This document shows positions 1,946 to 6,044 of a DNA stretch of 10,108 nt, piece by piece. Source of the stretch: Escherichia coli (lineage in GTDB: Bacteria; Pseudomonadota; Gammaproteobacteria; Enterobacterales; Enterobacteriaceae); NCBI RefSeq assembly GCF_003334335.1, contig NZ_QOWQ01000065.1, one strand, 5' to 3'. The stretch's first letter is position 1. Each line of letters opens with the position of its first letter. Made by a program: the position numbers and the translations under genes. The notes under the pieces are model-generated. The model saw only the letters and a list, made by a program, of their open reading frames with translations. It ran no database searches and had not been told where the DNA came from.

Positions 1946-3013
1946 ATGAGTCAACATCAATATTATCCACAGCTGAAATGGAAGCCTGCTGAATATGAAT
2001 CTCTGATGCTTTTAGATCAAACTACGCTCTCTGGTTTTACTCCGATCATTACCATTCCAGACATAGACTGGGATTATGAAAACGAATGCTACAAGAAGAG
2101 TTTGAGTTCTTACTTATCTGACTTCGGTATTAACCTTGCGGCATCCTGGAAAGCCAATCGTCCTGTTTTGCTGGATGTTAAATATTTAGATAAACATGGT
2201 TCGAGCCGCCATCATCCTCTAGATATGTGTATCCAAGATGCTAGAGTAAATGGTAAGGAAATTATCCCTGTTGTTTCTCCCGCATATTCAACAAACTATA
2301 TACATGCTGTTCAACGCAACTTAATCAATGGGCTCGCTATATCTATCCCCCCCCAGACATGGCACCAATTCACAAGTCTGGTTAACCACTTAAATATTCA
2401 TCCTAGTTTAATTGATGTAATCATTGATTTTGGAGATATTCAAAACGCAACTGATAGTTTAAAACAACAAGCATTAAGCATGGTCAACACATTATCAGGC
2501 CAAGCTCCGTGGAGAAACTTGATTTTATCTTCAACCGCATACCCAGCATCACAGGCAGGGATACCGCAACATCAAGTTCATCATATTCCGCGCCATGAAT
2601 ACGATCTTTGGATGTACGTAGTACAGAATTTTAGCAATGGAAGAACGCCAAGTTTTAGTGATTATCCCACCGCTAGCTCTACCATTACGAGCGTAGACCC
2701 ACGCTTCATGTCTCAGTATGTCTCAGTGAGATATTCGAACGATACCTCATGGATCTTTGTAAAAGGTACCGCAGTTAAAGGAAATGGATGGGGCCAAACT
2801 AAAAACTTATGTACTACCCTTGTTAGTTCGCCAGAGTATCAAGTCTTTGGTTCCAAATTTAGTTGGGGGGATGATTACATTTACCAAAGATCATTAGGCG
2901 CTAACAAATCTGGCGGCTCTAAAGAATGGCGTAAAGTTGCACATACGCACCATATTACGTTAGTCGTGAGACAGCTTTATTGGTTGGCGCAGACTCAGCC
3001 TGCCAAGCCTTAA
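1946..3013 (+). CDS. Hypothetical protein, 355 aa, cargo-island gene 1 (function unknown)
   Basis: Longest plus-strand ORF in the window. Strong SD (TAAGGAG at 1934..1940) about 5 nt before the ATG at 1946. Possible -10 TATACT at 1910..1915. Markedly A+T-rich codon usage compared with flanking phage genes. No motif I can assign to a known family. Confidence 0.75.
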   Translation: MSQHQYYPQLKWKPAEYESLMLLDQTTLSGFTPIITIPDIDWDYENECYKKSLSSYLSDFGINLAASWKANRPVLLDVKYLDKHGSSRHHPLDMCIQDARVNGKEIIPVVSPAYSTNYIHAVQRNLINGLAISIPPQTWHQFTSLVNHLNIHPSLIDVIIDFGDIQNATDSLKQQALSMVNTLSGQAPWRNLILSSTAYPASQAGIPQHQVHHIPRHEYDLWMYVVQNFSNGRTPSFSDYPTASSTITSVDPRFMSQYVSVRYSNDTSWIFVKGTAVKGNGWGQTKNLCTTLVSSPEYQVFGSKFSWGDDYIYQRSLGANKSGGSKEWRKVAHTHHITLVVRQLYWLAQTQPAKP

Positions 3014-3575
3014 CTTTCCAGCCTACGCGTTTCTTTAAGGCTGTTCTGACTTCAAGCCTGAGATTCGCTATTGGAATATTTTCCGCAATAATATTCCATA
3101 ACTCAAATCGGGGCTTGCTTTTGATTCCTTTGGAATAGCCCCATCGTTCAAGTACGTCGATACATTCATCTTTCCAAAGCAATTGAGCGAGCATCAATGT
3201 GTCATGGTTTCGATTAAGCTTTTCTCCACGCATGTGCTTTATAAGAATGGCGCCTTTTGGCCCAACAGAAACCGTTTTAACGCCCCACCAACCTGGGATT
3301 AACTTTAATGCTCCCTCAAGATGTTTCTCAGCTACGACAAGAGTAACCTTGTCCATTACAGAAGAATAATGCTTGATTTGAAGAGGCAAACGCTCCAAAG
3401 AGTCATATTCACTTTTGAGCTCGTACCCGTGTATAACACCATTTATTACAGCAATGTCTGCTCTACTGGCGCCAAGGGATATGGAAAATTCATCGACCAC
3501 AAGGCAGTCTGGATCTAAATGCGATTCTTTCAAAAGCTTATGATGCACCGCGAACCTAACATCTTGATCTTTCAT
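2955..3575 (-). CDS. Hypothetical protein, 206 aa, with PD-(D/E)xK-like nuclease motif; cargo-island gene 2
   Basis: Minus ORF with strong SD (AAGGAG, 5-nt spacer) before the ATG at 3575. N-terminal region VVDEFSISLGASRADIAVINGVIHGYELKSEYD has the E ... hD ... hExK spacing typical of the restriction-endonuclease-like (PD-(D/E)xK) fold. A+T-rich. Convergent with, and overlapping by 59 nt, the 355-aa gene. Confidence 0.75.
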   Translation of the reverse strand: MKDQDVRFAVHHKLLKESHLDPDCLVVDEFSISLGASRADIAVINGVIHGYELKSEYDSLERLPLQIKHYSSVMDKVTLVVAEKHLEGALKLIPGWWGVKTVSVGPKGAILIKHMRGEKLNRNHDTLMLAQLLWKDECIDVLERWGYSKGIKSKPRFELWNIIAENIPIANLRLEVRTALKKRVGWKVKAWQAESAPTNKAVSRLT

Positions 3576-3991: not shown

Positions 3992-4429
3992 TTATTTTAA
4001 GCACTGCGTCCTGATGTACTCCTGCAGGTAGTTGACCTGCGCGGTTATCTTGTCGATTCCACTTCGGAGACGGTAATAATTGAGTTCAGCATCTGCTGTA
4101 AGTCTTGGGCTTTCTCCATTGCCCATGCCGCTGGCTCCGGTCGTTGACTTTGCACAGGTAGCGGCGACTTGCAGGCGCTTACGCCCAGCAGAAACATCAG
4201 CACGGAGGCTTTCGATAGTCGCGTTAGCATCAGCAAGCTCCTTTGTATATCTGGCATCGAGTTCTGCTACGTCACGTTGACGCTTCTGCATATCAGCGAT
4301 TGTGGATGTGGCTTTATCGCGCTGCTCTTTGTAGGTTATGGCGTTATCACGGTAATGATTCAGCCCCAGACTAAGCGCACCACAGGCCACCAGCAGGGCA
4401 ATGATGACCACGCACAGTACGCGGTTCAT
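3992..4429 (-). CDS. Rz: Rz, i-spanin (inner-membrane spanin subunit)
   Basis: 145-aa ORF with N-terminal TM segment (VLCVVIIALLVACGALSL) followed by NHYRDNAITYKEQRDK..., periplasmic coiled-coil-like region and C-terminal ...NYLQEYIRTQC. Matches lambda Rz as I recall it (…VNHYRDNAITYKAQRDK…). Confidence 0.9.
   Translation of the reverse strand: MNRVLCVVIIALLVACGALSLGLNHYRDNAITYKEQRDKATSTIADMQKRQRDVAELDARYTKELADANATIESLRADVSAGRKRLQVAATCAKSTTGASGMGNGESPRLTADAELNYYRLRSGIDKITAQVNYLQEYIRTQCLK
4045..4230 (-). CDS. Rz1: Rz1, o-spanin lipoprotein, embedded in +1 frame of Rz
   Basis: ORF wholly inside Rz in another frame. From the ATG at 4230 (preceded by AGGAG with 7-nt spacer): MLTRLSKASVLMFLLGVSAC-KSPLPVQSQRPEPAAW..., i.e. 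signal peptide, lipobox-like VSAC, then a Pro-rich mature part. The track's upstream ATG at 4257 is an alternative start. Confidence 0.8.
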   Translation of the reverse strand: MLTRLSKASVLMFLLGVSACKSPLPVQSQRPEPAAWAMEKAQDLQQMLNSIITVSEVESTR

Positions 4430-4430
4430 T

Positions 4431-4529
4431 TCACCACCAGCGTATCTGACCGATGAAATAACCGGAGGCCATAATCACAAACACCAGCCAGATAAGAATG
4501 AACTTCCAGGTGGATAATTTTTCAGCCAT
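4431..4529 (-). CDS. Putative small hydrophobic peptide (32 aa) between endolysin and Rz
   Basis: Internal ATG of track ORF 4431..4700, preceded by GGGAG with 9-nt spacer. Product MAEKLSTWKFILIWLVFVIMASGYFIGQIRWW is a single predicted TM helix. The stop is 1 nt before the Rz ATG. The longer 89-codon reading would run through the hairpin at 4605..4637, so the short form is preferred. Coding status unproven. Confidence 0.3.
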   Translation of the reverse strand: MAEKLSTWKFILIWLVFVIMASGYFIGQIRWW

Positions 4530-4604
4530 CACTCGAATCTCCCGAATCAGTTTGCTAAAATCAAACACACTTTCTCCTTTGACTTTTCCGGAGTCAGGAA
4601 ACAC

Positions 4605-4727: not shown

Positions 4728-5261
4728 TTATCTGTCAATTCCCCAGCACGCCAGCGCACTCTCCTGGTCGCGACGGGATACCTGACCGTAACAGTTGTTT
4801 GAGCGAATACGGCAGTCTCTGCCACCGTCCTTAATCCACCAGCGAATCGCCTCACACGCTCCCCTGCGATCACCTGCATTAATTCGTTTATAAAACGTCG
4901 ACGGAAAACACTTACCGGGGCCAATGTTGTACGGACAGAATGACGCGATCCCCGCTTTCTGGGGTTCACTCAATGGCACTCTGATGTTTTTCTCCACCCA
5001 TGCCAGCGCCTTATCACGCTCAATGGCGTTAACCCGGTCGCATTTTTCCTTCGACAACTTCATGCCCGGAACGACAGGTTTGCCATCCACCAGGATGGCA
5101 CCGCGGCAGATGGTCCAGATACCCGCGCCATCACGGTATGCCGTGGTGTGGTTACCTTCCTTTTCATCCAGAAACTGGTCGAGAATGTCAGGCGCAGGCG
5201 CACCAGCGGCAATCAGCGCCAGAACGGCAGCCGACAGGCCGTATCTGATTTTTGCGTTCAT
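4728..5261 (-). CDS. R: Phage endolysin, T4-lysozyme-like (GH24), probable SAR-type
   Basis: 177-aa ORF. Catalytic E-x8-D-x5-T motif (EGNHTTAYRDGAGIWT). N-terminal Gly/Ala-rich weakly hydrophobic segment (YGLSAAVLALIAAGAPAP) typical of signal-anchor-release endolysins. Resembles phage 21 R / E. coli Qin-prophage lysozyme as I recall them. Confidence 0.9.
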   Translation of the reverse strand: MNAKIRYGLSAAVLALIAAGAPAPDILDQFLDEKEGNHTTAYRDGAGIWTICRGAILVDGKPVVPGMKLSKEKCDRVNAIERDKALAWVEKNIRVPLSEPQKAGIASFCPYNIGPGKCFPSTFYKRINAGDRRGACEAIRWWIKDGGRDCRIRSNNCYGQVSRRDQESALACWGIDR

Positions 5262-5324: not shown

Positions 5325-5675
5325 TTAAGGTTGTGATTCCGGAGGAGTCTTCAGAGAACCAGTAATTCTTCCCGGTAGCTTTCCTTTGTAGGTTATCCAT
5401 ACATTCTGCGCCTCTAAAATTACGGGGCGCTTTTCCGGCGACTGCTCATCCCCTTCACATAACCCGGCAGCAACATCCAGGAAGACCTGTCTGATGCTCC
5501 TTCTGGCTGCTGCCTCATAAAACTCCAGCGCGGCACCTTCAACACGGTCCAGCGAGATGTCCAGGTCAAAAATTTCACCGTCAAAGCGTTTTTTGTCCCG
5601 TAACGCTAAAGTTACCGTAACTTTATTCTCAAAATTGCGGATCCCTTTCACAATCAGTTTATAGTTTTGAGTCAT
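5325..5675 (-). CDS. Hypothetical protein, 116 aa, likely DUF1327 (YdfR-like), between holin and endolysin
   Basis: Soluble, acidic ORF (MTQNYKLIVKGIRNFENKVTVTLALRDKKRFDGEIFDLDISLDRVEGAALEFYEAAARRS...). Starts 4 nt after the holin stop, with GGGGAGAG upstream. Same position as ydfR in the K-12 Qin lysis cassette (essQ-ydfR-rrrQ). Family assignment is from memory, not a search. Confidence 0.65.
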   Translation of the reverse strand: MTQNYKLIVKGIRNFENKVTVTLALRDKKRFDGEIFDLDISLDRVEGAALEFYEAAARRSIRQVFLDVAAGLCEGDEQSPEKRPVILEAQNVWITYKGKLPGRITGSLKTPPESQP

Positions 5676-5679
5676 TGAA

Positions 5680-5895
5680 TTACTCTCCCCGTGCAGCCTT
5701 ACGACGGTCCTCTCTGATTTTGAAATACAGGTTAGTCAGATATGTCAGCAGCCCAAACAGCAGACTCCCCAGCACGCCTATTGCCGCCCACTGAGACGGG
5801 GAAACCCTGTCCAGCAACTGCAGGAACCAGTAGCCCGTTCCCACCGCTGACGTGGTGTATGACACACCTGTTGTGATTTTTTCCATCTGGTACAT
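5680..5895 (-). CDS. S: Class II holin, phage-21 S-like pinholin with dual start
   Basis: From the ATG at 5895: [71 protein letters not shown] (71 aa). Near-identical in pattern to phage 21 S (MKSMDKISTG...[24 protein letters not shown]...[21 protein letters not shown]). Two in-frame Met codons 3 codons apart give the antiholin/holin dual-start arrangement. GGAG lies 7 nt upstream. The track's longer 106-codon ORF to 6000 is probably read-through of upstream sequence. Confidence 0.85.
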
Positions 5896-6044
5896 ACCCC
5901 GTCTCCCGTTATCCGGAAGCTGACAACAATAAAAAAGCCACCAGTTAAGTACTGATGGCTCTGATAACTCATGCAGGCGTCTCAGACGACCCACTGACAC
6001 TACCGGTGAGTTTAACGATACCTTCCATTTGACTGGCTCACTTT

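Follow-up and report, generated by a model that had tools for sequence, protein, structure and literature searches.

The prophage lysis region

The window, by which we mean the whole stretch of 10,108 nucleotides analysed here, is 99.9% identical over its 10.1 kb to a prophage region in the chromosome of Escherichia coli BR1220. It contains a standard lambdoid late lysis region of an E. coli prophage, with all of the genes of the cassette on the minus strand. The holin gene (S) occupies positions 5680–5895 (−), stop codon included, and encodes a class II (S21-family) product of 71 amino acids from its first ATG (assigned with Pfam, PHROG and RefSeq). It is preceded by a gene for a SASA-family esterase (7898–6045, −; PHROG, RefSeq) and by an intrinsic-terminator-like element with a T-run (5925–5962, −; hairpin at 5962–5934), which was identified between the esterase gene and S with a terminator scan and RNA folding. 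The element has a 12-bp stem followed by TTTATTGTTG. Its location argues against translation of a longer holin from an in-frame GTG at position 6000. Such an extension, which would yield a protein of 106 amino acids similar to database entries of 91–97 amino acids, was rejected because it crosses the hairpin and has no SD sequence.

A YdfR/DUF1327-family gene (5325–5675, −; PHROG 406/2091; 'YdfR family protein' in RefSeq) separates the holin gene from the endolysin gene (4728–5261, −). The latter encodes a lysozyme (PHROG 7 endolysin; 'lysozyme' in RefSeq) with an E-8-D-5-T catalytic motif and an N-terminus that is SAR-like in hydropathy and composition: basic residues (K4 and R6) are followed by YGLSAAVLALIAAGAPAP, of which 56% is G/A/S/T. 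From these features we infer that the lysozyme is a SAR endolysin, the expected partner of a pinholin. The cassette also encodes an Rz-like i-spanin (3992–4429, −; PHROG 13) and, embedded in the Rz gene in another frame, an Rz1-like o-spanin (approximately 4230–4045, −; PHROG 3198 match on residues 10–70 of the ORF at 4257–4045).

We also identified a small unannotated ORF (4431–4568, −) between the endolysin and Rz genes. Its start codon is a GTG at a distance of 5 nt from AAAGGAG, and it ends 1 nt before the Rz start. Its 45-amino acid product has one C-terminal TMD (VFDFSKLIREIRVMAEKLSTWKFILIWLVFVIMASGYFIGQIRWW) and matches PHROG 6632, a family of unknown function (5e-29). The ORF is closely preceded by a terminator-like hairpin (AAAACCCCG...CGGGGTTTTGTGTTT). 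The predicted protein could be an additional membrane-acting accessory factor for lysis.

The flanking regions carry other genes. Two convergent and slightly overlapping genes (1946–3013, + and 2955–3575, −) lie between Rz and the gene for the small terminase. RefSeq names them 'beta family protein' and 'sce7726 family protein', and the pair matched the PADLOC candidate defence models PD-Lambda-2_C (4e-32), 'beta' (5e-10) and 'cll' (4e-31). This pair is probably anti-phage defence cargo at the junction between the lysis and packaging genes of the prophage. On the other side of the cassette, downstream of a DNA methyltransferase gene (10102–9173), is a tRNA cluster (8874–9123, −) with Arg-TCT, Arg-TCG and a CAT-anticodon tRNA that ARAGORN assigns to Met and RefSeq to Ile. 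Two full-length copies of the Rfam family RF02076 (sRNA STnc100; 8121–8330, − and 8608–8798, −; 165 and 136 bits) lie in the interval from the tRNA cluster to the esterase gene, the site of stx in Stx phages. No stx-like ORF was found after the tRNA cluster (7900–8870), and the region therefore looks like a stx-less relative of the late regions of Stx phages.

The holin and its start codons

The holin matched the Pfam family PF04971 (Phage_holin_2_1, 'Bacteriophage P21 holin S') with an E-value of 1e-32, its residues 5–67 aligning with positions 1–63 of the 64 in the model, and the PHROG holin families 9876 and 20. In the 99.9%-identical E. coli chromosome, RefSeq places a coding sequence at exactly 5680–5895 (−) and names it 'class II holin family protein' (WP_000284510.1). 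The NCBIfam search yielded no model matching the holin, and the PDB sequence search no relative. The protein aligned without gaps to the S21 protein of phage 21 (77% identity over 71 residues), with Met1 and Met4 in register. The S21 query sequence is backed by a phage record that it matched at 100% in tblastn. It also agrees with the description of S21-68 as a protein that begins M-D-K and carries the aromatic patch YWFLQW (bioRxiv 10.1101/2021.04.20.440580).

The predicted protein has the S21-type layout of approximately 70 residues, with a very short N-terminal cytoplasmic segment, two TMDs in the hydropathy profile (residues 7–28 and 36–57) and a charged C-terminal tail. The composition of TMD1 is weakly hydrophobic and SAR-like, with a mean Kyte-Doolittle value of 0.71 and 50% G/A/S/T, compared to 0.52 and 55% in TMD1 of S21. 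The helix-packing (glycine-zipper) motif G-xxx-S-xxx-G of TMD2 is kept as G-VLG-S-LLF-G and aligns with IGVLGSLVLG of S21. These features of the sequence place the gene among the class II holins of the S21 family and, by homology, make it a pinholin, as the first-pass annotation had called it. Pinholins of this type form small heptameric pinholes, which depolarize the membrane but do not let soluble endolysin through. The prototype of the class, the S gene of phage 21 (S21-71 antiholin and S21-68 pinholin), shares with it the SAR-like TMD1, the TMD2 motif and the charged C-terminus, as well as an SD-bearing hairpin directly 5′ of the first start and a lysozyme partner with a SAR-like N-terminus. 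Unlike the phage 21 cassette, the window has the YdfR/DUF1327 gene between S and R, and its endolysin differs (177 amino acids, 933W/Qin type).

The plus strand at 5884–5895 reads CATCTGGTACAT, the reverse complement of which is ATG TAC CAG ATG. The first start codon (ATG1) is at 5895–5893 and the second (ATG2) at 5886–5884, in the minus-strand context ...CGGGAGACGGGGT ATG TAC CAG ATG GAA AAA ATC.... Direct reading of the minus strand thus bears out the description of a holin that opens with MYQMEK and has two Met codons three codons apart: the N-terminus has two in-frame starts with a separation in the range of one to three codons that defines a dual start. The frame runs for 71 codons from ATG1 to the stop at 5680. 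Initiation at ATG2 would produce a 68-amino acid protein (MEKITT...; 5680–5886, −), the predicted counterpart of S21-68, and Met4 is present in all of the aligned homologs. The Met1-Tyr2-Gln3-Met4 motif is, by alignment with Met1 and Met4 of S21, a homologue of the S21 dual start and one that a specialist would expect.

The family is small, with 161 hits among 1.8 billion cluster representatives, and almost all of the full-length sequences in a set of 120 homologs have the pattern M-x-x-M-[DE]-K. Divergent members also begin with paired Met residues (MKIMPEK, MITMDK, MQLMGK, MTDMNK and MNMDK). We compared the nucleotide sequences of 17 diverse family loci, drawn from phage records and from contigs encoding homologs; the search for related loci in IMG/VR gave only near-identical copies. 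An ATG lies exactly 9 nt 5′ of the conserved ATG in 14 of the 17 loci and 6 nt 5′ in two others, and one locus has none; the loci share ancestry, and the count measures conservation rather than independent events. The codons between the two ATGs are almost entirely different (TAC CAG, AAA TCC, TTA CGC, ATT ACT, CAA TTA, ACC GAT, AAA ATC and TTT CAA). Several lineages with non-basic extensions (MIT, MQL, MTD, MFQ and MYQ) retained ATG1. This pattern points to purifying selection on ATG1 in most lineages.

Of the 5426 complete E. coli genomes, 2450 carry the gene and its leader, at 8943 places in total; the median copy number is two and the highest 14. The gene also occurs in 355 phage records, the majority from Stx-converting phages, and the exact 71-residue MYQ protein is encoded on at least 1000 contigs. 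The Stx2 phage 933W has an S protein with the MYQMEK N-terminus that differs from the holin in the window by one residue (R61K). The leaders are near-identical from the hairpin to the start and differ only in the hairpin loop (GAUUG in 933W versus GAUAA in the window). The Stx1 phage BP-4795 has the same MYQMEK start as the window and 933W, again with a near-identical leader. Both phage genes are annotated from ATG1 as proteins of 71 amino acids, and the 933W protein is labelled 'similar to S protein of bacteriophage H19B and Qin'. The searchable literature held no experimental study of the dual start of this allele, no paper with 'MYQMEK' and none combining 'dual start', 'holin' and '933W'.

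The start region of close relatives comes in distinct allelic forms, namely MYQ, MDQ, MNQ and the single-start ATA CAT CAG ATG, which has another leader. Scanning IMG/VR with a pattern anchored only on sequence from ATG2 onward recovered 120 stretches. ATG1 is present in 68 of them, as ATG TAC CAG (MYQ, 57 stretches), ATG GAC CAG (MDQ, 7) or ATG AAC CAG (MNQ, 4), and is absent in about 40% of the sampled close relatives. The sequence before ATG2 is ATA CAT CAG/CGG, with no first start, in 41 stretches, a different single-start leader in five and other, unrelated sequence in six. At least 1000 contigs likewise encode the Y2D protein. For the N-terminal variants, no weighting by the size of 90%-identity clusters was applied, because one such cluster mixes MYQ and MDQ proteins. 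Among 77 unique alleles of the clade, variation is greatest at residue 2, which has four states (Y, H, D and N), and the other polymorphic sites show mostly conservative changes (e.g., L/F, K/R and V/A). The extra residues of the long form are thus weakly constrained, and an acidic residue is tolerated where S21 has Lys.

Phage genomes carry the single-start alleles as well. For example, phage YYZ-2008 and the Stx1a phage Stx1_EH1992 encode nearly the same 68-residue protein at the same position of the cassette, with a ydfR-family gene next to it. Their genes have ATA in place of ATG1, another leader and GGAG 11 nt before the sole ATG, and they are annotated as 68 amino acids; in alleles without ATG1, the annotated start is the ATG2 codon. 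The occurrence of such alleles in phage genomes suggests that the long form is dispensable.

Translation signals and RNA structure of the start region

By prediction, each start has a usable ribosome-binding site. SD1 (GGGAG; 5907–5903, −) lies 7 nt before ATG1 and has a predicted anti-SD duplex of −7.4 kcal/mol. An SD2-like element (GGGGT; 5896–5900, −) lies directly before ATG1 and 10 nt before ATG2, with a predicted duplex of −6.3 kcal/mol. Tandem SD-like elements are also found in other family members, and SD1 is the stronger of the two in most lineages.

RNA folding predicted a hairpin (CUUCCG-GAUAA-CGGGAG; 5903–5919, −) that holds SD1 in its 3′ arm and leaves the SD2-like element outside. 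Members of the MYQ clade share a nearly invariant stem; the loop is variable (GAUAA, GAUUG and AGUA), and the sequence farther upstream diverges freely. Comparable SD-bearing hairpins are predicted in 10–11 of 12 diverse lineages, with the same layout in other sequences (e.g., CACCCGC...GCGAGGUG, GCCUCUC...GAGAGGU and CCCCC...GGGGG). Each of these compact hairpins is modestly more stable than shuffled controls, and the Fisher combined p for the 12 lineages, which are not fully independent, is approximately 2e-6. The pairing probability of SD1 did not differ significantly from that obtained with shuffled upstream sequence, since the base composition of C-rich leaders is enough to make them pair with the SD. 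RNAalifold recovered a consensus of only four pairs from a MAFFT alignment of 10 leaders (covariation term −0.36), and the Rfam search gave no hit at the S leader.

The MFE fold also predicts a longer helix (5850–5902, −) in which ACGGGGUAUGUACC, comprising SD2, ATG1 and codon 2, pairs with codons 10–16 (GGUGUGUCAUACACCACGU) and ATG2 is apical. The MFE fold of the 126-nt region has a z-score of −3.07. For this start region, the predicted probability of being paired is 0.83 for AUG1 and 0.62 for AUG2, and in 10 of the 13 lineages folded the prediction gives AUG1 the higher pairing. In a locus whose holin is identical to S21 (L082), we noted by eye a perfect complementarity between GCGGAGGTG in the SD1 region and CACCTCCGC in codons 14–17. 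This downstream pairing, which is absent from the MFE fold, could compete with the upstream hairpin.

A similar layout is known from phage lambda, in which an upstream stem-loop overlaps the SD of the first start of S (the sdi RNA structure). A stem-loop was reportedly also described for S21, by Barenboim and co-workers in 1999. The predicted arrangement of hairpin and SD elements in the window resembles the sdi control of lambda S and is suggestive of a bias that would favour AUG2 and leave the 71-residue form in the minority. Lambda S (S107 antiholin and S105 holin) also has two in-frame starts a few codons apart. Its protein, however, belongs to an unrelated family, a class I holin with three TMDs that forms large holes.

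Proposed roles of the two predicted products

The inhibitory action of the antiholins S21-71 (M-K-S) and lambda S107 (M-K) is attributed to the extra basic residue of their extensions, the role of Lys2 in S21 being given second-hand in these sources (PMC9636201, PMC13056207, PMC4749879). In line with this, dual-start holins are described as having at least one basic residue between the starts, so that the longer product gains positive charge (PMC4749879, PMC9636201, PMC13056207 and the Fig 8 legend of PMC9671378). Furthermore, a mutational screen of S21-68 found that positive charge located at the N-terminus delays pore formation and that acidic or hydrophobic residues speed it up (bioRxiv 10.1101/2021.04.20.440580). 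We looked for a basic residue between the two starts of the holin in the window and found none, the extension residues being Tyr-Gln. The 71- and 68-residue forms have the same net side-chain charge (0), each with one basic and one acidic residue before TMD1; in the same computation, S21-71 gains +1 over S21-68. The uncharged Met-Tyr-Gln extension differs in this respect from both the Met-Lys-Ser of S21 and the basic Met-Lys of lambda S107 (PMC9636201).

This difference divides the reading of the locus as a mirror of the phage 21 S arrangement. The analogy holds for the two Met columns, which match those of S21, and fails for the antiholin role, because Met-Tyr-Gln lacks the extra basic residue. 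The proposal of an antiholin role for the longer product and a holin role for the shorter one had been carried over from phage 21. For this allele, we find it unsupported, because the extension lacks the feature to which inhibition is ascribed and because there are natural alleles that either lack ATG1 or have an acidic residue in the extension. It is doubtful from the sequence that the longer form is a true antiholin. Selection still seems to act on the first start: the retention of ATG1 in lineages without a basic extension suggests a selected role for the longer product or for initiation at ATG1 that does not need the basic residue, and inhibition could be part of that role.

The explanation that we favour, and to which we give about an even chance of being correct, is that both starts are used, that the 68-residue form is the effector and that the 71-residue form is near-equivalent or weakly inhibitory. 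Based on the sequence context and on phage 21, ribosomes would initiate at both AUGs and produce proteins of 71 and 68 residues. GGGAG in the 3′ arm of the hairpin would serve AUG1, the weaker GGGGU outside the hairpin would serve AUG2, and RNA structure would limit the use of AUG1. In the 68-residue effector, the weakly hydrophobic TMD1 would exit the membrane and TMD2 would assemble pinholes, leading to membrane depolarization and release of the SAR endolysin. The stay of the 71-residue form in the inactive topology would outlast that of the 68-residue form by little or nothing; a bare delay is expected because Met-Tyr-Gln, unlike Met-Lys-Ser, adds no positive charge. The longer protein would then be a near-equivalent and perhaps slightly slower holin isoform, or at most a weak antiholin. 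Start choice would act as a fine trim on lysis timing rather than as the main timer, and AUG1 would be dispensable. The statement that the dominant start sets lysis timing is plausible for this allele as a weak effect at most.

A full pair of the phage 21 type, in which the 71-residue antiholin prevents the exit of TMD1 from the membrane and titrates the 68-residue holin, with the ratio of starts setting the lysis time, is possible but rather unlikely. The two Met residues at the exact homologous positions of S21, the family-wide presence of ATG1 even with non-basic extensions and the hairpin that would occlude SD1, as expected of a regulated ratio, are all consistent with such a pair, and some GenBank records say 'holin/antiholin component S'. 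The equal charge of the two products argues against it, as do the abundance of acidic (Y2D) and neutral (Y2N) variants and the approximately 40% of sampled close relatives without ATG1.

We consider it unlikely that only one start is functional, be it AUG1, with Met4 as an inherited internal residue, or AUG2, with RNA structure blocking AUG1, which would persist by descent. AUG1 has the best SD at an ideal spacing of 7 nt, is the annotated start and has the stronger SD in most lineages; the pairing of AUG1 predicted in 10 of 13 lineages and the location of SD1 within the hairpin would point instead to AUG2. Single-start alleles are viable in phage genomes, and database gene calls include both the 71- and the 68-amino acid versions. 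However, both products are reported to be made in phage 21 (Barenboim 1999, as relayed in PMC9636201), and the two AUGs, only 9 nt apart, each have an SD-like element at a workable spacing. The conservation of both ATGs while the codons between them diverge would also be hard to explain if one of them were never used. Finally, chance is a very improbable source of the motif: a Met within three residues of a start is unremarkable in isolation (a few percent by our own estimate), but an upstream ATG was kept at −9 or −6 in 16 of the 17 diverse loci despite the complete turnover of the intervening codons.

The family is divided on the charge of the extension. Extensions with K or R (MKS, MYR, MLR, MMK and others) make up approximately 100 of 160 sampled dual-start entries in our own tally, and extensions without either residue (MYQ, MDQ, MNQ, MHQ, MFQ, MIT, MQL and MTD) approximately 60. 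We tentatively propose that uncharged or acidic dual-start extensions form a large natural class within PF04971, in which the upstream AUG would act without the positive-charge mechanism. It may do so through a charge-independent antiholin (extension length, the free alpha-amino group or interfacial anchoring of Tyr) or as a translational device that sets the total synthesis of holin.

The gene, its family and the dual-start motif are textbook material, and the gene is already known from nearly half of the complete E. coli genomes. We therefore present the result as a caveat on ordinary biology rather than a discovery. Start choice in holin genes is a classic means by which phages time lysis and, in Stx phages with this allele such as 933W and BP-4795, the timing of lysis also affects the release of toxin. 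If the uncharged extension yields no antiholin, many of the 'holin/antiholin' labels given to this allele in databases overstate what is known. If a functional antiholin is made despite the lack of charge, the model now accepted for pinholin inhibition, which is based on charge, needs revision. Within the proposed class, the natural variation at residue 2 (Y, H, D and N) would be a tuning knob for the lysis time of Stx and other E. coli prophages.
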